The translations under genes and the position numbers were made by a program. Positions 4,046 through 18,977 of a DNA stretch of 64,000 nt are shown piece by piece. The stretch is from an uncultured Bacteroidales bacterium (lineage in GTDB: Bacteria; Bacteroidota; Bacteroidia; Bacteroidales; VadinHA17). Under the pieces are notes generated by a model that was not told the origin of the DNA, did not search any database, and saw only the letters and a program-made list of their open reading frames with translations. Location of the stretch: positions 528,139 through 592,138 of the forward strand of contig CAVPGA010000005.1 of the NCBI GenBank assembly GCA_963703935.1. Direction: 5' to 3'. How positions within the stretch are numbered: position 1 is the first letter of the stretch; every line of letters starts with the position of its first letter.

Positions 4046-7000
4046 ATGAAATTCCCTTTCTGTTTAGTACTCATAAGTCTTTCACTGTTTTCATGCAGCA
4101 AACTTTCTAAAGAAACCTTTGAAAAAATATCCTCTTCCAGGTCAGGTATTGATTTTATTAATGAATTGATAGAAAACGACACATTGAATTATACCGAAAT
4201 TCCCTTATATGTATATGGGCGGAGGTGTTTCGGTGGGCGACATCAATAATGACGGACTGGATGACATTTTCTTCACCGGGAATCTGGTTCCCAATAAACT
4301 CTACCTTAACAAGGGGAATATGAAATTTGAAGACATATCCGAAAAAGCAGGTATAACGGGTAATCATCAATGGTTCACAGGTTCAACCATGGCAGATGTG
4401 AACAATGATGGCTGGCTGGATATTTATGTTTGCGTTTCAGGGAAATATCAGCCATCGGATAATTTGCTTTTTATCAATAACAAAGACAATACTTTTACGG
4501 AATGTGCAAAAGCTTATGGTATAAATGACAAAAGTTCTTCTGTTCAGGCTACTTTTTTTGATTATAACAATGACGGCTTTCTGGATTTATATGTTGCCAA
4601 TTACCCGATAATACTGGTTAGTATGGGTGCCGAATTTTATCATAACAAAATGATCGAGAATAAATTCGAAGAATCAGGCCACTTGTATAAAAATAACGGG
4701 AATGGTACATTTACGGATGTGACTGACGAAGCAGGTGTACGAAATTTTGGTATGTCAATAGGTGTGGTTGCCATGGATTTTAATAATGATGGATGGAAAG
4801 ATTTATACATATCCAATGATTTCAATCCCCCTGATCTTTTTTATCTGAATAATGGTGATGGCACTTTTAGAGAAATAGTAAAAGAGGCTACATTTCAAAC
4901 CTCCATTTTTGGGATGGGCTTAGATGCAGCGGATTTCAATAACGATGAGCTGATTGATATGTTCCAGATTGATATGACTCCTGAAGATCATTTTCGCAGA
5001 ATGGTGAATGTAATCCCAATGAGTCAGAATACATTTGATTTAAGTGTTGGTTTTGGAATTCATTATCAGTATATGCAGAATTCATTGCAGCTTAATAATG
5101 GAATCTTTGATGGCATCCCGGTATTTAGTAATATTTCGCTGTTTGCAGGAGTTGCCTATACTGACTGGAGTTGGGGTGGTGTTTTTCTGGATATGAATAA
5201 CGATGGAAACAAGGATTTATTTGTTACCAACGGTGTTCTGAGAGACATAAATAACCGCGATATCTTAGAAAATGATCCGAATAGTGTTTATTTCAGACAA
5301 GTGAAGGAATATCGTCCGGAGCTTTTCCCAATTACCCCGGTAAGAAATTATGCCTTTGAAAACAATGGCGATTTAACTTTTGCTGATAAATCAGTTTCCT
5401 GGGGATTTGAAGAGCCGACTTTAGCCAATGGAATGGCTTACGGTGACTTCGATAACGATGGCGATCTTGACATAGTTATCAGCAATGTTAATGAGGAATC
5501 AGCTATCTATGAAAACAGAGTAGTTCATAAAGGCAATCATTATATTAAAATCAACCTGGCTGGTCCGGAAAACAATTTGTTTGGATTGGGAAGTATCGTT
5601 AAAGTAAAGACAGGTGATGTTACTCAAATTCAGGATTTTACGCTCACAAGAGGCTATCAGTCGAGTATGCCAACTACCATTCATTTTGGTTTGGGTCAGA
5701 AAGACACTATTGATGAAATAACTGTAATATGGCCTGACAGGAAACAGCAAGTACTTAAGAAAATCATAGCGGACCAGACACTTAAAATTGGACTATAACG
5801 ATGCAGTTGCTGCAAAAACTCAGGATACCAAAAAAAAGTATTTCAAAGACGTTACAAATCTGTCCGGAATAACATTTGTTCATCACGAAGATAATTACAA
5901 TGATTATGAATCTGAAGTGTTGCTTCCCTACAAGAATTCACAGATGGGCCCTGGTTTAGCTGTAGGGGATGTAAATGGAGACAAGCTTGAAGATTTTTAT
6001 GTCGGCAATGGAAAGGGCTTTCCCGGAGCTATGTATTTGCAAACTGATAAAGGTACATTCAAGGAAATTCCGGGCCCGTGGATAGGTGATTCGATTTATG
6101 AAGATACAGGAGCCCTTCTGTTTGATGCCGACAATGACGGGAGATCGGATCTTTACGTTGTCAGCGGAGGAAATGATCACACGAAGAAAGCAGCCTATTA
6201 CCAGGACAGGTTATATCTGAATACGGGGCAAGGCTTCATTAAAAGTATCAATATTCTTCCTGCCGATTTAAACAAAAGCGGCAAATGCGTAAAAGCTGCA
6301 GATTATGATAAAGATGGCGATCTCGATTTGTTTGTCGGAGGACGCATTGTTCCTGGAAATTATCCACTCCCTGCGAACAGTTATTTGCTGAAAAATAATG
6401 GAAAGAAAGGTGCTGATCTGAGATTTGAGAATGTAACAGAAGAAACAGCACCGGGACTTATGAATCTGGGACTTGTTACTGATGCTATCTGGGATGACTT
6501 TGACAGCGATGGTGATGTTGACCTTATTATTGTCGGGGAATGGATGAAAATTCGCTTTTTTGAAAACTCATCAACCGGTTTTACTGATGTTACCGATAAA
6601 GCTTGGATTTGGTGAAACAACCGGCTGGTGGTTTAGTATTAACAGTTGTGATATTGATAAGGATGGTGATAACGATTACCTTGCAGGTAATCTTGGATTA
6701 AATTACAGGTACAAAGCCAACGAAAAATCAATATTTGAAATATACTCCAATGATTTTGATTTGAATGGTAAGATTGATATCGTACTTGGTTATAGTGAAA
6801 AAGGGATAACTTATCCGGTTAACGGTTTTGATGGCACATCCAGGCAGATTCCGGTTATCAGACTAAGGTACAAAAGTTATGAAGAATTTGCAAAAGCAAC
6901 ATTGCCAGGAGATATATGGAGAACAAATGTTGAAAAGCTTCTTTGCATTACAGGGTAAATACATTTGCCCATCAATGGATTGAAAATAAGGGAAAAGGGA

Positions 7001-7339
7001 AGTTCACAATGCATGAACTTCCAAACAGGACACAGATTTCTTCCATCAATGATATGGTTGAAATGAAATATGACGATAATGACTCCGCTATAATAATTGC
7101 TGGTAATTTATATGGCACCGAGGTAGAGACACCGAGAAATGATGCAAGTATAGGACTTGTCTTGCAATTCAGACCCGAAAGGTGAAATAAAGGTTATTCC
7201 ACCTGAAGAAAGCACTCTTTTCATTAAAGGTGAGGTGAAAGCTATCAGGAAGATCAAATTGGCTTCAGGAAAAGATGCTTTTCTGTTCGCGATCAATAAT
7301 GATTCACTGAAATTGATTGAACTTGACTTAAACCCTTAG
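4046..7339 (+). CDS. FG-GAP/VCBS repeat plus ASPIC/UnbV domain lipoprotein (CRTAC1-like), paralog 2, frameshifted in this assembly
   Basis: It has a lipoprotein signal peptide (MKFPFCLVLISLSLFSCS) and the same architecture as 617-3972: YMGGGVSVGDINNDGLDDIFFTGN, DYNNDGFLDLYVANYP, and a UnbV block LGSIVKVK..LTRGYQSSMPTTIHFGLG..VIWPDRK. The six colinear ORF pieces are 4046-4249, 4209-5798, 5788-6615, 6560-6958, 6943-7185 and 7157-7339. Confidence 0.8.
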
Positions 7340-9965: not shown

Positions 9966-10668
9966 ACAGATTGTTTTTAATAGTTTTGAATCAGCCACAG
10001 ATTCAACCTGTTCAATTTTTACATTTTTAATCCAAAGTCCAGTAATTCGTTTCCTGTTTCTTCAATTGGATTCAATCCTGAAAGTGTTTTATTAACTATT
10101 TGACTATCTATTTTTTCCAATGGAACAGGGATTTCATCATCCTTCTTTTTAAAGTACCCTGAAATCACCGATGTAAGAGAGGTAATCAGACTTATGGAAT
10201 TCATGATTACTTTTATGACCGATGACTATAATAGTGATCTGGACCCAAATTCACATCATCACTGGACAGGAACCATCATACTGGTTAAAGGGGAATAGCA
10301 GAATAATTACCTTAACTATAAGTTTTTAAACGCTAAACTAAAAAGCCCTGCATACGCCTGCAGCCTGATTATTCTATCGTATTTTCACTCCTACCCTTAT
10401 TGTTTAAGGGACGGAGTTGGAGGAAGGGTTAAGAAAAGAAAAAAGAGGATTGCTCGTCACTTTGTTCCTCGCGATTCTCTAGGGATAACAGCCCAAGTAA
10501 AAAGCCTTGCAGCGCTTGAGCGGTTTGTTGGAATTACGTATGAAATTGCTTTACATGGTCACCCCTCTTTGCGGAGCAGAGAGAGCCTGCCCTGAGCGCA
10601 GCGAAGGGGGCAGGGGGTGAGTTCGTGCCGGGATGAGGATTGCTCGCTCCGCTTCTGATCCCCGGGGG

Positions 10669-10917
10669 GGTGGCTTTTCAACACTTTACAACAATTATTA
10701 ACAGCAGTTTCGATTGGAAACGTGCGTTGGCAAACCGGAAATGGCGCGAACTTCAGCCTTTTTTGGGAGGGTGATGCATAAGGCATTTTGCCAAAAAAGG
10801 CTGAAGTTGTCATTTCCGGCGCCCTTTTTCTTTGGTTCGTTTCTTTTTGGACGAACAAAAAGAAATGAACATAAAAAAGGGTGACCTTTTGAGACACCCT
10901 CTTTAGGGTGAGGCCAA
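10669..10917 (+). repeat. 249-nt core, copy 1 (variant A: T/G); candidate structured RNA
   Basis: By eye it is identical to copy 3. It contains the long hairpins described for copy 3. The + strand is inferred from G:T wobble positions. Confidence 0.6.
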
Positions 10918-11091
10918 CGAGGGAGGATTATTCGCTTTGCTCATGATCCTTTGGGGAGGTGCTTAACAACGAAAAATCCCTGTCTCGCCTTCGGCTCGAC
11001 TGAGGTCTTTTTGTTTTAGTCCCTTATAAAAGGAAGCTTTTAACGGGTTTAAAAATGGGAGGATTGCTCGCTCTGCTCCTGATCCTCTGGG

Positions 11092-11340
11092 GGTGGCTTT
11101 TCAACACTTTACAACAATTATTAACAGCAGTTTCGATTGGAAACGTGCGGTGGCAAACCGGAAATGGCGCGAACTTCAGCCTTTTTTGGGAGCGTGATGC
11201 ATAAGGCATTTTGCCAAAAAAGGCTGAAGTTGTCATTTCCGGCGCCCTTTTTCTTTGGTTCGTTTCTTTTTGGACGAACAAAAAGAAATGAACATAAAAA
11301 AGGGTGACCTTTTGAGACACCCTCTTTAGGGTGAGGCCAA
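11092..11340 (+). repeat. 249-nt core, copy 2 (variant B: G/C); candidate structured RNA
   Basis: It differs from copies 1 and 3 only at gcgTtgg->gcgGtgg and ggagGgtg->ggagCgtg. Confidence 0.6.
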
Positions 11341-11513
11341 TGAGGGAGGATTATTCGCTTTGCTCATGATCCTTTGGGAGGTGCTTAACAACGAAAAATC
11401 CCTGTCTCGCCTTCGGCTCGACTGAGGTCTTTTTGTTTTAGTCCCTTATAAAAGGAAGCTTTTAACGGGTTTAAAAATGGGAGGATTGCTCGCTCTGCTC
11501 CTGATCCTCTGGG

Positions 11514-11762
11514 GGTGGCTTTTCAACACTTTACAACAATTATTAACAGCAGTTTCGATTGGAAACGTGCGTTGGCAAACCGGAAATGGCGCGAACTTCA
11601 GCCTTTTTTGGGAGGGTGATGCATAAGGCATTTTGCCAAAAAAGGCTGAAGTTGTCATTTCCGGCGCCCTTTTTCTTTGGTTCGTTTCTTTTTGGACGAA
11701 CAAAAAGAAATGAACATAAAAAAGGGTGACCTTTTGAGACACCCTCTTTAGGGTGAGGCCAA
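11514..11762 (+). repeat. 249-nt core, copy 3 (variant A); candidate structured RNA
   Basis: Hairpin 1 (11580-11664) has helices CCGGAAATG/CATTTCCGG and AACTTCAGCCTTTTTTGG/CCAAAAAAGGCTGAAGTT with an apical ATGC-ATAAG-GCAT stem-loop. Hairpin 2 (11665-11728) has CGCCCTTTTT/AAAAAGGGTG enclosing GTTCGTTTCTTTTTG/CAAAAAGAAATGAAC. Upstream there is a GTTTC-GATTG-GAAAC stem-loop. Confidence 0.6.
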
Positions 11763-11996
11763 TGAGGGAGGATTGCTCGCTTCGCCCTCCTACGCCAAAG
11801 GCTTCGGCGGGCAAAGCTCGCGATCCTTTCGGGTGGTGCTTAACAACGAAAAATCCCTGTCTCGCCTTCGGCTCGACTGAGGTCTTTTTGTTTTAGTCCC
11901 TTACCTACGCCGAAAGCAGAGCTCTTCGGTTTAACCCCCGGGGGGGTTTAGGGAAACCAATGGGAGGATTGTTCGCTCCGCTCCTGATCCCCGGGG

Positions 11997-12245
11997 GGTG
12001 GCTTTTCAACACTTTACAACAATTATTAACAGCAGTTTCGATTGGAAACGTGCGGTGGCAAACCGGAAATGGCGCGAACTTCAGCCTTTTTTGGGAGCGT
12101 GATGCATAAGGCATTTTGCCAAAAAAGGCTGAAGTTGTCATTTCCGGCGCCCTTTTTCTTTGGTTCGTTTCTTTTTGGACGAACAAAAAGAAATGAACAT
12201 AAAAAAGGGTGACCTTTTGAGACACCCTCTTTAGGGTGAGGCCAA
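11997..12245 (+). repeat. 249-nt core, copy 4 (variant B); candidate structured RNA
   Basis: It carries the same two substitutions as copy 2. Confidence 0.6.
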
Positions 12246-12410
12246 TGAGGGAGGATTGCTCGCTTCGCCCTCCTACGCCAAAGGCTTCGGCGGGCAAAGC
12301 TCGCGATCCTTTCGGGTGGTGCTTAACAACGAAAAATCCCTGTCTCGCCTTCGGCTCGACTGAGGTCTTTTTGTTTTAGTCCCTTATAAAAGCAAGCTTT
12401 TAACGGGGCT

Positions 12411-12450
12411 AAAACAAAAACCCCTCACCGCTTCGCGGCAAGGGATTTTT
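12411..12450 (-). terminator. Bidirectional Rho-independent-type terminator between the tRNA and the repeat array
   Basis: The stem is CCCCTCACCGC-ttc-GCGGCAAGGG (4 bp + 2x2 internal loop + 4 bp). It is flanked by aaaacaaaaa on one side and atttttc on the other, so a U-run follows the hairpin on either strand. It lies directly 3' of the minus-strand tRNA. Confidence 0.6.
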
Positions 12451-12455
12451 CTTTG

Positions 12456-12527
<72 letters not shown>

Positions 12528-12675: not shown

Positions 12676-12700
12676 GCAGTTGGCAGTTGGCAGTTGGCAA
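12676..12700. repeat. Left inverted-repeat arm: (GCAGTTGG)x3 + CAA
   Basis: The sequence is gcagttggcagttggcagttggcaa. The 19-nt stretch ggcagttggcagttggcaa (12682-12700) is the exact reverse complement of 13171-13189. Confidence 0.9.
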
Positions 12701-12745: not shown

Positions 12746-13126
12746 ATGTTTGGCACTTTCAGGGATTTGACTGTTTACAAAAAAGCATTTGCATTTGCCA
12801 TGAGGATATTTGAAATCACAAAAAAATTTCCTCACGGGGAGAAATTCGAACTGACCGATCAGATAAGGAGATCTTCACGGTCTGTTTGCCGGGCAATTGG
12901 TGAGGGCTATAGGAAACGCCAATATCCAAGGCATTTTTCAGCTAAAATAAGCGATGCTGATATGGAGAATACCGAAACACAGGTTTCCCTTGATTTCGCA
13001 GAAAGTTGTAAATACATTTCCGTCAAAGAGTATAAAGAACTTATTATTGAATCTGAAGAAGTTGGCCGAATGCTTAATCATATGATTGAAAATCCTGAAA
13101 AATATCGTCCGAGAAACCAAATCTAA
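12746..13126 (+). CDS. Four-helix-bundle protein (23S rRNA intervening-sequence protein / Avd-like family)
   Basis: The ORF is an intact 126 aa. The pattern L.VYKKAFAF...I..ITKKFP..EKF.L.DQIRRSSRSV...IGEGY.K....F...I..A..E..ET...L....C.YI...EYKEL....EEVGRML..MI matches the family as I remember it (TIGR02436-type). Confidence 0.75.
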   Translation: MFGTFRDLTVYKKAFAFAMRIFEITKKFPHGEKFELTDQIRRSSRSVCRAIGEGYRKRQYPRHFSAKISDADMENTETQVSLDFAESCKYISVKEYKELIIESEEVGRMLNHMIENPEKYRPRNQI

Positions 13127-13138
13127 TCATATAACTTT

Positions 13139-13189
13139 TTGCCAACTGCTGTTTGCCAACTGCCCTGCTGTTGCCAACTGCCAACTGCC
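13139..13189. repeat. Right inverted-repeat arm: several copies of TTGCCAACTGC
   Basis: The sequence is ttgccaactgctgtttgccaactgccctgctgttgccaactgccaactgcc. The last 19 nt are the reverse complement of 12682-12700. Confidence 0.9.
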
Positions 13190-13732: not shown

Positions 13733-14598
13733 ATGCCAAAGAACGATAAGAAAAAAAGGACACTGGCGCGATAAATACAGGTTTTCTGTCAGTAATGACA
13801 CTACCTTTGAAGAAGTATGGAGGATCAGGCTTACCAAATACAATGCTTTTCTTCTGATTACGTTCCTAGTGTTTTTTATAATTGGCGCTACAACATTACT
13901 TATAGCTTTCACAAACCTGCGGGAGTTTATCCCGGGATATCCCGATGTAACCATGAGACGCAATATTCTTATCAGCGCTATACGTCTTGATTCGCTCGAA
14001 AGGGAACTTGGCCTGAGGGATAAGTACTTTTACAATCTGAATGCAATTATTTCAGGGAAAGAGCCTGTTGATATTTATTCTGTTATGGATACAACAAGGA
14101 ATTACAAATCTATAAGTTTTCAGTAATTCTCCTGAGGATTCAGCCCTGAGATCACAGGTTGAAAAGGAAGACCAGTATAATCTTTCGCTGGGTCAGACAT
14201 ACCCTGAGCCGGTAACAAGCCTGGCAGGACTGCATTTCTTCCCTCCTGTAAAAGGAATTGTCTCCGGGAAATTTGATCCTCGCACAAAGCATTTCGGAAC
14301 TGACATGGTTACAAAACCAAAATCAACTGTTAATGCCGCCCTTGATGGTACTGTAATCTTTACCGGATGGACAATGGAAACAGGATTTGTTATTGAAGTT
14401 CAGCACTCCAATAATATTGTTTCTGTATATAAGCATAATGCAAGTCTTCTGAAAGAGACCGGAGATCTGGTCCGGACAGGTGAAGCAATTTCTGTTGTTG
14501 GTGATTCAGGTGAACTGTATACATCAGGACCTCATCTCCATTTTGAGATATGGTACAAAGGAAGTCCGCTTGATCCTGAAAAACATATTATTTTCTAA
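13733..14598 (+). CDS. M23-family metallopeptidase with N-terminal membrane anchor, frameshifted in this assembly
   Basis: The C-terminal block is GTVIFTGW...GFVIEVQHSNNIVSVYKHN...GDSGELYTSGPHLHFEIWYKGSPLDP (LytM/M23). There is a TM segment AFLLITFLVFFIIGATTLLIAF. ATG at 13733 joins the long frame through a 1-nt length change in the A7 run at 13751-13757. A second frame change lies near 14120. Confidence 0.8.
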
Positions 14599-14613
14599 AA
14601 TCGGAAAAACGGT

Positions 14614-15783
14614 ATGCCAAAAAGAATTGCATTGTTGGGATCAACCGGATCAATAGGCACTCAGACACTGGATGTAATTTCCAGGTTTCCCTGTGAATTC
14701 AAGGTTGAAGTTCTGACTGCCGGAAATAATATAAAACTTCTCGCACAACAGGCAAAAAAATTTCTTCCTGATTCTGTCGTTATTGGAAATAAGTCACATT
14801 ATCCCCAGTTAAAGGAAGAACTTAAAGATTACCCATGTTAAAGTACTATGCAGGTGATGATGCCATTGAACAGGTAGTGACAGGTTCCAATATTGACCTT
14901 GTCATTGCTGCAATGGTTGGATATTCAGGACTGAGACCTACAGTTGCAGCAATTAAAGCCGGTAAAAAAATTGCCCTTGCCAATAAGGAGACACTTGTTG
15001 TTGCCGGGGAGATAATAAAAAAACTTGTTAAGGAATCAGGAAGCCGGATTATTCCTGTTGATTCAGAACATTCTGCAATCTTTCAATGTCTTGCCGGAGA
15101 ATCCGGAAATCCGATTGAAAAAATAACTCTGACAGCCTCAGGAGGTCCTTTTCTTAATTTTACACGGAGAGATGCTGAGAATGTCAAACCTTATGAAGCA
15201 CTTAAACATCCAAACTGGGATATGGGAAATAAGGTCACAATCGATTCAGCTTCACTAATGAACAAAGGACTTGAGGTGATTGAAGCAAAATGGCTTTTTG
15301 ATCTCGATCCCGATCAGATAAAAGTTAGTGATACATCCCCAGTCGATAATCCATTCAATTGTCCATTTTGCTGATGGTTCAGTTAAAGCACAGCTGGGAA
15401 TGCCCGATATGAGGATTCCGATTCTGTATGCACTTACCTATCCCGACAGATTCACTTCCGATCTTCCACAGCTTGACCTTAGCCTCTACCAGACACTTAC
15501 TTTTTGCGATCCGGATATAAAAAGATTCCGTAACCTTTCCCTTGCATATGACGCCCTTAAACAGGGTGGCAATATGCCCTGTATAATGAATGCAGCAAAT
15601 GAAGTTGCAGTAAATGCATTTCTTGCCGGGAAGATCGGATTTCTGCAGATGTCTGATGTTGTTGAATATACAATGGAAAAAACGGAATATTTTCCAGTCT
15701 CCGGGTCTTGGATTCCTTGAAACAACTGATATTAACGCCCGGGAAATTGCATTAAACTATATTAACAAACTACATAAGAAATG
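14614..15783 (+). CDS. dxr: 1-deoxy-D-xylulose-5-phosphate reductoisomerase, frameshifted in this assembly
   Basis: Motifs seen are [33 protein letters not shown] and [31 protein letters not shown]. The pieces are 14614-14841, 14835-15374 and 15328-15720, plus a last piece ending NYINKLHKK-stop at 15783. Confidence 0.9.
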
Positions 15784-17119
15784 ATGACAATACTAATTAA
15801 AATACTTCAGTTTATTTTGAGCCTTTCAATTCTTGTAATAATACATGAATTCGGACATTTTATTCTTGCCAAGCTATTTAAAACAAGAGTTGAAAAATTC
15901 TACCTCTTTTTTGATCCCTGGTTTTCACTTTTCAAAATTAAAAAAGGTGAAACAGAATATGGAATGGGATGGCTGCCTCTGGGCGGATATGTAAAGATCT
16001 CAGGGATGATCGATGAATCGATGGACAAGGAACAGATGAAACAACCTCCGCAGCCATGGGAATTCAGGTCAAAGACTTCATGGCAGCGACTTCTTATTAT
16101 GACAGGCAGGAGTGATTTTCAACTTTATTTCTGCAATGCTGATCTATGTTTTGGTACTGTATGCCTGGGGCGAAACTTATCTGCCGACTTCCAATGTTAA
16201 ATATGGTATTGTTACCGACTCTGTCGGATATTCAATTGGATTAAGAAACGGAGATAAGATTCTTTCTGTCGATAATCAGAATATTGAAAATTTTGTCCAG
16301 ATCACCACCGATATTGTCTTGAATGACCGTAAAACAATCCAGGTTGACAGGAACGGAGAAGTATTGAATATTAACGATTCCAACCGAGCTATGTTCCAAA
16401 GATGCTTAAGGGGAAAGGACAGATTGAACCAAGGACTCCTTTCGGACCTTATGTAATATCAGGCTTTGGGAAAGAATCTCCGGCAAAAGCTGCCGGATTG
16501 CTTGCCGGTGATGAACTGACTTGGACTTGACGGACTAAGGTTCACCTGGTATGATGAATTTCAGAAATATCTTGCCGAGAACAAGACCAGGTCAATGTCT
16601 GTGAATGTCCTGCGCAAGGGAGAAAATGTTGATATTCCGGTAATACCGACTACAGAAGGATTTCTTGGAATATTGAGTTCAAGATCGTATGACAAGATAT
16701 TTGACCTGAAAACAATAAAATACGGTTTCCTCGAATCAATTCCTGCCGGTATTGCAAAAGGATTCAAAACAATTGGAGATTACCTGAAGCAATTCAAGCT
16801 GCTTTTCTCAAAGCATACAAAAGCTTATGAATCGCTCGGAGGATTTATTACAATCGGAAGCATTTTTCCCGGGGTTTGGGACTGGCAGTCCTTCTGGAAC
16901 CTGACTGCCTTTCTTTCAATAATCCTGGCAGTGATGAATATTCTTCCTATTCCGGCTCTCGACGGCGGACATGTCATGTTCCTTCTGTATGAGGTAGTTA
17001 CCGGGAGAAAACCAAGTGATAAGTTCCTTGAATATGCACAGATTGCAGGAATGGTAATTCTTTTCGCACTGCTTATCTTTGCAAACGGGAATGATATATT
17101 GAGGCTGATAAGGAAGTAG
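15781..17119 (+). CDS. rseP: RIP site-2 metalloprotease RseP, frameshifted in this assembly
   Basis: There is an HEFGHF (HExxH) motif in the first TM region, a PDZ-like middle part, and a C-terminal NILPIPALDGGH motif. The colinear pieces are 15781-16200, 16112-16456 and 16595-17119. Confidence 0.85.
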
Positions 17120-17335
17120 ACGGAAGTCGGAAGACGGAAGTCTTAAGTGAATTAAGTCACTTAAAGAGCACTCTGAAGCAGAAGGGGACGGGAGTAGTAC
17201 TTGCGAACGAGTTAAGAGTCTGAGCTAATGAAGACTTGGCAGGACGGGGGTGAGTACGTGTGAAGACTAAGACCGAAGACCGAAGAAGGAAGGAAGGGAG
17301 AGTGGAAGAAGTTAAAACTGGGACTTCGGTCTGAA
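17120..17335. repeat. Intergenic cluster of short tandem and palindromic words
   Basis: acggaagtcggaagacggaagtc follows the rseP stop directly. Other elements are the palindrome TTAAGTGA-attaag-TCACTTAA, gaagactaagaccgaagaccgaagaagg, and GAC-ttcg-GTC. Confidence 0.7.
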
Positions 17336-17355
17336 AATATTATTCAGCTTCTGAT

Positions 17356-17385
17356 TTGTAAATAATCAAAGTATTTTTAACTTTG
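17356..17385 (+). promoter_or_regulatory. Bacteroidota-type promoter (TTG-N19-TAACTTTG) upstream of tatA
   Basis: TTG is at 17356-17358, followed by a 19-nt spacer and TAACTTTG at 17378-17385. The tatA ATG is at 17409. Confidence 0.55.
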
Positions 17386-17408
17386 CAGAAAATCAAATAC
17401 TAAAAGAG

Positions 17409-17567
17409 ATGGGAAAGATAGGTTTAACTGAGATAATACTGATTTTGCTTGTTGTTGTACTTCTTTTCGGAGGCCGTAAAATTCCTGAATTAATGAAAGG
17501 TATTGGTCAGGGTATGAAAGAATTCAAAAAGGCTTCGAAGGTTGATTCTGAAAGTGACCCGAAATAA
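17409..17567 (+). CDS. tatA: Twin-arginine translocase subunit TatA/E
   Basis: A 52-aa ORF not in the track (below 60 aa): [52 protein letters not shown]. It has the TM helix, the FGG.K.PEL hinge and the amphipathic helix typical of TatA. Confidence 0.85.
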
Positions 17568-17613
17568 ATCTCAGGGAAAGCAAATTCTAATTCAAGGATA
17601 TTTAAAGTGTACG

Positions 17614-17636
17614 GGCTGGTAAAACAGCCTTTTTTC
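17614..17636 (+). terminator. Rho-independent terminator after tatA
   Basis: GGCTG-gtaaaa-CAGCC followed by TTTTTT. Confidence 0.6.
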
Positions 17637-17887
17637 ATTCAGACTTTGCCGATGAGGGCGGGAGGGCAACCCGGAACCACCCCGGCCGGGAAAGTAAATT
17701 GTAAACCTCTCAAAAATCTATAGTCCCGGCCACCCCTCCTTGCAAAAAGGAGGGGAAAGTTATCAAACTTAAATTCAGTACTTTACATTCTGTTTTGGGT
17801 CAAATTCGTTCCCTATTTCCCTGTTCGAAGCCAAATTTAAACCTGCTTGTTGTGCCATTACGACCTTGGATTCGCGTACAGATCTGG

Positions 17888-18977
17888 TTATGAAACAGGT
17901 TCGTATTTCTGATTTCTTCTTTCAGGATCAAATCCTGCCTCCCTTATTATCGACTGCATCTCATCAGCATCAAAACGGTTATTTGCCCCTGCAGCACTTA
18001 CAACATTCTCTTCAATCATTATCGATCCAAGATCATTTGCACCGGCATGAAGTGACAGCATAGCAATTTCCTTACCGACAGTGAGCAACGAAGCCTGTAT
18101 ATTCTTAATATTATTCAGCATGATCCTGCTTATGGCGATCAGGCGTATGTAATCAGGTCCGTTATACCTGCTTTTTATTCCAAACTTCTCCGAAAGAACT
18201 GTCCCTTCATCCTGAAATGGCCAGGGTATAAATGTTATAAATCCATAATGTTCCTTATGTTTTTCAGCCTGAAGATCCCTGATCTTTATAAGATGTTCAA
18301 TCCTCTCTGCAATTGTTTCAACATGTCCGTACATCATTGTTGCCGATGTGGGCAGATTAAGCTTGTGAGCTTCTCTCATCACTCCAAGCCACTCCCCGGC
18401 AGTAGCTTTGGCAGGTGAAACTATTTTCCTGACCCTGTCGGACAGAATTTCAGCACCTGCACCCGGAAGACTGTCCAGCCCTGCTTCCATAAGCCTGGTA
18501 AGCACATCATAATATGACAGTTTTTCTTTTTTTGAAAGATAAACAATCTCAGGCGGGCCAAGTGCATGAAGTTTCAGTCCGGGATATAACTCCTTGAGTT
18601 TTCTGAAGAGATCTGAATAGAAATCGAGTCCGAGATCCGGATTCATGCCCCCCTGAAGCAGAAGCTGATCACCTCCAAGGGAAATCAGTTCATCAATCTT
18701 TCTCATATAGTCATCAATTGAAGTAACATATGCATCGGGAGAACCTTTTTTCCTGCAGAAATTACAGAACGAACACTGCGAAAAACAGATATTTGTGATA
18801 TTCACATTTCTGTCGATCATCCATCCGGCATACTTCCCCGGATTATGGATCTGCCGGAGCTTGCCTGCAACGAACATCAGCTCTTCGAGAGGGGCATTTT
18901 CATAAAGAAAAACTCCTTCATCCGTATCAAGAGGCAATAAGGTTCAGAGCTCTGGTATATAGCTTATTAAGTTCCAA
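17888..18977 (-). CDS. Futalosine-pathway radical SAM enzyme (MqnC/MqnE, CofH-like family)
   Basis: The radical SAM cluster is CFSQCSFCNF. Flanking blocks are NVNITNIC, GGDQLLLQGGMNPDL, KLHALGPPEI and GAEILSDRVR. The likely N-terminus (LELNKLYTRALNLIA) is one frame off just upstream of 18937. MqnC and MqnE cannot be distinguished by eye. Confidence 0.7.

Follow-up and report, generated by a model that had tools for sequence, protein, structure and literature searches.

Some members of the IS1182 family of insertion sequences (IS) are reported to target DNA secondary structure. IS1272 of Staphylococcus inserts into stem-loops without target duplications, and its variant IS1272L carries a tandem 25-bp duplication of the left end that includes the left inverted repeat (IRL) (PMC5678879); Siguier et al., as cited in that paper, state that some family members target palindromes. 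ISMsp1, another member of the family, comes from plasmid pSD15 of Microscilla sp. PRE1 (NC_002806.1). Here we analyse a tandem array of four hairpin-rich units next to a tRNA-Met gene in a 64,000-nt stretch of DNA from an uncultured Bacteroidales bacterium (contig CAVPGA010000005.1, positions 528,139 to 592,138; the whole stretch is called the window below). Each unit contains a 249-nt core that had been put forward, in an original prediction made from the sequence alone, as a candidate novel structured RNA gene. Sequence comparison argues instead that each core is a left end of an ISMsp1-like IS1182-family IS, cut off from the rest of its element and lying on the minus strand, and that the array is a tandemly amplified remnant segment; we put the probability of this reading at roughly 0.8. 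The whole core, from the IRL to just upstream of the transposase gene, is homologous to IS1182-family left ends, a match of the kind that the original prediction had itself named as grounds for abandoning the RNA gene. A striking multi-hairpin array beside a tRNA gene would thus be IS debris and not a new class of RNA, which removes a false lead.

A scan of metagenomes with a core-derived 22-mer returned 11 homologous loci, and a search with the spurious minus-strand open reading frame (ORF) that runs across the core returned 19 further entries, each an ORF on a single contig. One unit had no blastn match in phage and plasmid collections, an exact 29-mer had none in 185,579 species-representative genomes, and a 20-mer had none among viral contigs. 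The metagenomic homologues of the core include six IS copies, one transposase-less miniature derivative (a miniature inverted-repeat transposable element, MITE) and several solo ends. In two of the IS copies, L094 and L083, a 513-amino-acid (aa) ORF follows immediately downstream of the core homologue and on the same strand, which corresponds to the minus strand of the window. The product of this ORF scores 465 bits against the NCBIfam model NF033551 for IS1182-family transposases (cut-off 270) and has the domains DUF772, DDE_Tnp_1 and DDE_Tnp_1_6. The same left end is present in the four other copies (L098, L099, L100 and L101), which were reached through homologues of the transposase; these number more than 7,600 at E ≤ 1e-100. 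In all six copies the order of parts between the terminus and the transposase gene is IRL, a hairpin called RH, a longer hairpin called hairpin 1, and a spacer. The closest named element to the attached transposases is ISMsp1 (60% amino-acid identity), and the ISMsp1 inverted repeats, GAAGAGGCYGTCTCAAAAG, are homologous to the IRL of the window core and of the six IS copies. The window IRL, AAGAGGGTGTCTCAAAAGG on the minus strand, matches ISMsp1 GAAGAGGCTGTCTCAAAAGG as well as the IRL and right inverted repeat (IRR) of L098 and L099. The last two are identical copies at two loci of one genome and fix the termini of the IS as AAGAGGGTGTCTCA...TGAGACGGCCTCTT; its IRL/IRR pair is AAGAGGSYGTCTCA and its right end is AAAAAAGCCGTCTCA...TGAGACGGCCTCTT.

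In the direction of transposase transcription, an intact left end consists of the IRL, AAGAGGGTGTCTCAAAAGG(N)CACCC, and a T run; RH (GTTCATTTCTTTTG...CAAAAGAAATGAAC); the sequence CCAAAGAAAAGG; hairpin 1; the sequence GGTTTGCC; a variable spacer of about 45 nt; a GC hairpin, GAAGGGGGATGCCTCCCCCT; and finally a hairpin, CCTCAGGTTATGTAACTTGAGGT, that abuts the transposase ATG. Because the window core is collinear with these left ends, its GGGTG/CACCC hairpin at the 3' end (for example 11724-11748) is read as the IRL, its nested 15-bp hairpin as RH and its 85-nt hairpin as hairpin 1. At its 5' side the core aligns over ~60 nt with the spacer of L094, and homology ends at TTGAAAAG. The four units stand head to tail between 10631 and 12441, with lengths of 423, 422, 483 and 483 bp (Tandem Repeats Finder and repeat search; the copy number is that of the assembly). 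The cores lie exactly where they had been placed, at 10669-10917, 11092-11340, 11514-11762 and 11997-12245, and as had been noted they vary at two positions only, core positions 59 (T/G/T/G) and 102 (G/C/G/C). The core motif has eight matches in the window, every one within the array locus, where about 0.1 would be expected by chance. The array and its IS-derived parts are as follows.

10631..12441, no strand assigned: tandem array of four units, each made of S hairpin, IS left-end remnant, S' hairpin, B terminator and spacer
10674..10903, minus strand: putative IS1182-family left-end remnant, copy 1, with the IRL tip at 10903 and running inward to 10674; homologous to L094, L083 and L098-L101
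11097..11326, minus strand: putative left-end remnant, copy 2; homologous to IS left ends
11519..11748, minus strand: putative left-end remnant, copy 3; homologous to IS left ends
12002..12231, minus strand: putative left-end remnant, copy 4; homologous to IS left ends, and 95% identical to the single-copy relative L085
11724..11748 (other copies 10879-10903, 11302-11326, 12207-12231), minus strand: IRL, reading AAGAGGGTGTCTCAAAAGGTCACCC and then a T run
11680..11715 (10835-10870, 11258-11293, 12163-12198), no strand assigned: RH, a 15-bp subterminal hairpin that includes a single G:T and is shared by all IS copies
11580..11664 (10735-10819, 11158-11242, 12063-12147), no strand assigned: subterminal hairpin 1, 85 nt, with 9-bp and 18-bp stems and an apical part, supported by covariation
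11519..11579, minus strand: IS spacer remnant (the part between hairpin 1 and the transposase-proximal hairpin), cut at TTGAAAAG and aligning to L094 421-487

ISMsp1 and the window IS end have the inverted-repeat core GAGGSYGTCTCAAAAG in common. In both, the IRL folds into a hairpin that is followed by a T run, and the right end of ISMsp1 is a hairpin preceded by an A run. They differ in that ISMsp1 has only about 100 nt between IRL and transposase gene and lacks the ~165-nt module formed by RH and hairpin 1, and in that the window has no transposase. IS1272 and IS1272L belong to the same family as the window IS end, but the IS1272L duplication is one of 25 bp within an intact IS, whereas the window holds four units of 422-483 bp, each composed of remnant and host repeats, with no transposase. 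The IRL hairpin and T run resemble an inward-facing terminator. A comparable arrangement exists at the left end of IS200, which carries a terminator hairpin and a stem-loop that sequesters the start site. The intact copies would share with IS200 both an inward-facing hairpin and T run at the end and a stem-loop covering the start, CCTCAGGTTA..TAACTTGAGGT-ATG; IS200 differs in having an HUH transposase, unrelated to the DDE type, and no counterpart of the two long subterminal hairpins. The comparison documents an abundant and uncatalogued ISMsp1-like IS1182-family element of environmental Bacteroidales, both ends of which mimic intrinsic terminators and whose left end bears a conserved two-hairpin module.

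The window units themselves do not pass as an intact IS. With the L094 transposase as query, tblastn over the 64-kb window gave no match, and the right inverted repeat (TGAGACGGCCTCTT) is not present at the other end of the core, which stops within the IS spacer at TTGAAAAG. Lacking both transposase and right inverted repeat, the units are not MITEs either: a MITE has two terminal inverted repeats around a short non-coding body, and the units have the IRL only. L091, in contrast, is a transposase-less derivative that keeps both ends (IRR hairpin, module and IRL). Solo left ends are found in L085, L092, L096 and the window, each with an intact IRL and each with a different inner cut point. As the window holds neither transposase nor right end, the array is best described as a 422-483-bp segment amplified in tandem. 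By its sequence the core belongs to an undescribed relative of ISMsp1, which would be represented in the window only by amplified remnants.

Some core homologues belong to elements of another kind. Composite elements of about 400 nt (L084, L087 at 9998-10326, L088, L089 and L090) are bounded by inverted hairpins, LH and RH, and by CAAAGAAAA; they contain hairpin 1, a fast-evolving linker of ~50 nt and a second structured segment, Part I (GCTTGCCCACGCAATACAAC..CAAACAGTATTGC..GCAGCAAGC..CAAAATTCTCTGAGG), and they have no Rfam match. This wider family recalls the BIME/REP, BOX and Correia elements in being modular (RH/LH, hairpin 1, Part I and a nested GAGCTCGCCGAAGGC), intergenic, sometimes tandem and conserved in place, although there is no sequence relationship between those elements and the ones described here. 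We note that the orthologous site of the composite elements has an lptF/G-like gene on one side and a small ORF of 126 aa on the other, and that the RH hairpin of L082, L088 and L091 encloses small GC-rich modules (..GAGCTCGCCGAAGGCAAATGAAC..), which indicates a further layer of tiny hairpin insertions. The intact elements also differ in how their parts have diverged. Between L094 (241-2160) and L083 the two-hairpin module is 97-98% identical, the spacer 50%, the region around the transposase start 87-93% and the rest of the transposase gene 45-83% (per 60-nt window), while L098 and L100 carry diverged RH and hairpin 1 modules with compensated stems. The IS group is therefore mosaic.

Three points weigh against the reading of the array as amplified IS left ends. 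The 64-kb window has no intact IS copy and no right inverted repeat, so the link to an IS rests on homology to sequences of other organisms. The two-hairpin module occurs without an IRL in the composite elements L084, L087, L089 and L090. The orthologous locus shared by L087 and L084 shows 80-97% identity in the flanking genes and 85-100% in the modules but only 55% in the linker, so that part of the core may exist independently as a module. Lastly, the mechanism of amplification is inferred solely from the layout of the repeats. The module, which makes up the bulk of the core, might accordingly be suspected of having a function of its own as a structured nucleic acid. Such a function would fit the near identity of the module between ISs whose transposase genes have diverged far more, its compensatory changes (below) and its conservation at an orthologous site beside a decayed linker. 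It could take the form of a regulatory or outward-directed RNA carried by the IS, or of a cruciform to which a stem-loop-seeking transposase responds; in either case the host would also have exapted it. We regard a function of this sort, together with these candidates, as rather unlikely.

That the hairpins are maintained is clear. All helices of the original prediction are present in the array: the 9-bp, 18-bp and ATGC/GCAT stems are perfect, and the 10-bp and 15-bp helices have one G:T each. One unit folds far better than shuffled sequence (z = -9.1 on the plus strand and -7.8 on the minus strand). A plain MAFFT alignment given to RNAalifold put the apical part and RH out of register, and stems were counted on register-fixed arms; for hairpin 1 this meant 18 distinct variants with arms at fixed offsets and the apex replaced by GAAA. 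Here 98% of cells are paired, and 10 of the 25 pairs have changed on both sides, values that none of 500 shuffles reached; sliding the partner by one column lowers pairing to ~58%. RH likewise has compensatory variants (GTTCC/GGAAC in L090, GTCAC/GTGAC in L093 and CCAC/GTGG in L095), and the IRL hairpin covaries between GGGTG/CACCC, GGTGTA/TACACC and GATGTA/TACATC, with GGCTG/CAGTC in ISMsp1. The check by compensatory changes that had been proposed for the predicted helices thus supports hairpin 1 and the 15-bp hairpin. It does not extend to the 10-bp outer helix drawn around the latter, which consists of linker and the A run beside the IRL, nor to the competing GGGTG/CACCC pairings; both are by-products of the IS inverted-repeat hairpin and its A/T runs, and neither is conserved as such. 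The covariation shows selection for hairpin formation, whether as RNA or as single-stranded or cruciform DNA.

The strongest case for RNA would be that the units are four small-RNA genes on the plus strand, each with its own promoter, a body made of hairpin 1 and RH, and the B hairpin as terminator. The stems covary, but covariation of palindromes is equally expected of hairpins that act at the DNA level. Every unit does end, on the plus strand, in a terminator-like hairpin and T run, and the plus strand folds slightly better than the minus strand. An AT-rich TAnnAWTG-like box was read by eye ahead of the module in the composite elements; in the window units a consensus scan found no plus-strand promoter consensus. 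The argument from wobble pairs, on which a plus-strand transcript had been proposed, is not borne out. The G:T positions are real and about three independent events favour the plus strand (RH of the window subgroup, the stems of L081 and L087, and that of L089), but the wobble pair of L100 favours the minus strand and the left-hand RH copy of the composite elements has the reverse polarity, so no strand can be called from them. Outside comparison gives no more help to an RNA gene. Against Rfam 15, the 8-16 kb portion of the window yields at E ≤ 1 only the tRNA and chance matches to microRNA-like hairpins, and at E ≤ 0.1 the 11 homologous loci yield tRNAs and chance matches of the same sort alone. 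The tandem small-RNA arrays NsiR1 of Nostoc and LhrC of Listeria are autonomous genes with mapped promoters and transcripts. The window array is like them in its near-identical head-to-tail units ending in a terminator-like hairpin, but its unit body is IS-derived, and its terminator and S hairpin belong to the tRNA locus (below). Moreover, the core is collinear with IS left ends that are joined to a transposase on the opposite strand, and its inner boundary is a truncation point within IS sequence. We thus consider four small-RNA genes quite improbable. Protein coding was also discarded: the plus-strand ORF of 56 aa and the minus-strand ORFs of ~100-130 aa read through the palindromes and have no conserved starts.

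The remaining parts of the units are local to the tRNA-Met gene. They and the tRNA features are as follows.

11479..11518 (other copies ~10633-10672, 11057-11096 and ~11962-12001; a diverged copy at 10445-10486), no strand assigned: S hairpin (GGGAGGATTGCTCGC..GATCC..GGGGG), found by repeat analysis
11766..11838 and 12249-12321, no strand assigned: S' hairpin, long variant, found by repeat analysis
10921-10961 and 11344-11383, no strand assigned: S' hairpin, short variant, found by repeat analysis
11855..11896 (10978-11019, 11400-11441, 12338-12379), plus strand: B, a terminator-like hairpin and TCTTTTTGTTTT; an inverted copy of the tRNA terminator, 81% identical to L015
12409..12451, minus strand: terminator T1, directly after tRNA-Met, found by repeat analysis
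12455..12527, minus strand: tRNA-Met (CAT), whose transcription heads into the array; tRNA prediction and Rfam

The S motif, like that of the core, has eight matches in the window, all within the array locus (~0.1 expected by chance). The neighbouring gene of family GH9 gives synteny with 80 loci and groups the window with Prolixibacteraceae-like Bacteroidales; only one of the 80, L015, has the tRNA-Met context. There, S-B units without any core stand between GH9 and tRNA-Met. This assigns S and B to the tRNA locus rather than to the core and speaks against the small-RNA genes discussed above. B repeats, in inverted orientation, the terminator T1 of the tRNA itself (inverted repeats I7-I10). 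It also shares 16 nt, CTAAAACAAAAAGACC, with the right end of ISMsp1 and could be a decayed IS right end; this likeness is limited to the A/T run and GAGAC, and B occurs without a core in L015. S (for example 11762-11776) shares 11 nt, AATCCTCCCTC, on the minus strand with the 3' part of the T-arm and acceptor of tRNA-Met (12455-12475), and might be a pseudo-tRNA fragment. From these two relationships the tract looks as if the 3' flank of the tRNA had been copied and rearranged several times, which would be expected of a hotspot for integration or recombination. L015 also contains, at 13977-18114, an island of ~4.1 kb bounded by direct repeats of 13 nt that match the 3' end of tRNA-Met (GTAGCGGAGGGAG) and with S-B units on both sides; by eye it holds a primase/helicase-like ORF broken by a stop and an ORF of divergent-AAA/HTH type, and no integrase was seen in it. 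A CRISPR-like or integron-like reading of the S repeats was dropped once the core had been identified as an IS end. The conserved ends and variable centre of S had suggested attC sites, and no integron integrase ORF is evident in 6-18 kb of the window.

Direct hairpin repeats, S and S', flank every core, and each unit could conceivably have arisen when a miniature element inserted independently into an S stem-loop, which was duplicated in full as a long target duplication (S-core-S'). Stem-loops are indeed targets of IS1182-family members, and in one of the pathways proposed the stem-loop is duplicated (PMC5678879). A core that lacks the right inverted repeat and whose left boundary lies within the IS spacer is not mobilisable, however; the spacer and B are identical among units and the period is regular, as segmental duplication predicts; and L085, which has a single copy of the core beside the same tRNA-Met, has it with S' only. 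Independent insertion is for these reasons improbable. We note that no short target duplication is present around L098, L099, L094 or L091, and that S and S' flank each core and yet also exist without it; the family reportedly inserts without duplicating its target (PMC5678879).

The number of units could also be questioned, a single or double unit having been expanded, or strain variants mixed, by an error-prone long-read assembler. Many genes in the window are frameshifted: a VCBS/FG-GAP protein (5788-7339), dxr and rseP (14614-15720, 15781-17119) are each split into three or four overlapping ORFs, and the split housekeeping genes suggest error-prone long-read assembly. An exact-protein look-up of one neighbouring gene found nothing on record, probably owing to indel errors in the window. 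The short-read relative L085 has one copy only. Along the array the core variants run a, b, a, b and the S' variants short, short, long, long, so that all four combinations occur, as mixing would allow. Assemblers, however, usually collapse tandem repeats and do not expand them; the differences in unit length (422 versus 483) and in the S and S' variants require at least two real unit types; and related elements stand in tandem elsewhere (L086 and L089). An artefactual copy number is thus very improbable.

Under the reading as an amplified IS left end, the array may have arisen in a few steps. An IS of a stem-loop-seeking family would have inserted downstream of tRNA-Met, in a tract rich in hairpins and terminators. 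Such a target fits the behaviour of IS1272 and the flanks of the present element, from which its own stem-loop targeting is inferred: in L098 (1559-1640) the IS starts 2-3 nt after the 3' end of tRNA-Arg(CCG), where the terminator would be expected, and in L094, L100 and L101 there are A runs to the left of the IRL. Placement behind tRNA genes thus fits the stem-loop targeting proposed for the family. The IS body would then have been lost by a deletion ending in the transposase-proximal hairpin. The S-core junction lies in or beside the transposase-proximal GC hairpin of the IS, where window GGGGGTGGC aligns to L094 GGGGGAGGC, which suggests a microhomology-mediated deletion of the transposase gene and right end. 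Unequal recombination between the S direct repeats of ~40 nt could next have multiplied the segment S, remnant, S', B and spacer to four copies; such recombination can duplicate a unit because S-type repeats recur along the tract, as they do in L015. The occurrence of all four core and S' combinations points to later exchange between units or, less likely, to mixing during assembly. The locus would thus illustrate how local repeats can, by recombining, multiply the remnants of an IS. The hairpins of intact elements most likely work in cis: those of the inverted repeats would shield the IS from transcription entering from outside, and the subterminal ones may be transposase or regulatory structures. 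In the window they would be remnants and at most serve as extra terminators behind the tRNA.

Two further features adjoin the array. A GC-rich hairpin repeat (CCCCTCTTTGCGRAGCAGAGAG...GGCAGGGGGTGAGTTCG) stands next to the IS remnant both in the window (10547-10625) and in L092 (~10385-10435). On the other side, a gene for a 23S_rRNA_IVP/bAvd-like four-helix-bundle protein (PF05635) lies at 12746-13126. This neighbour prompted consideration of a retron or diversity-generating retroelement, which was rejected as there is no reverse transcriptase nearby. The gene is bracketed by inverted short tandem repeats, with GCAGTTGGCA repeated on its left (12680-12700) and two copies of CTGCTGTTTGCCAACTGCC on its right (13146-13182).

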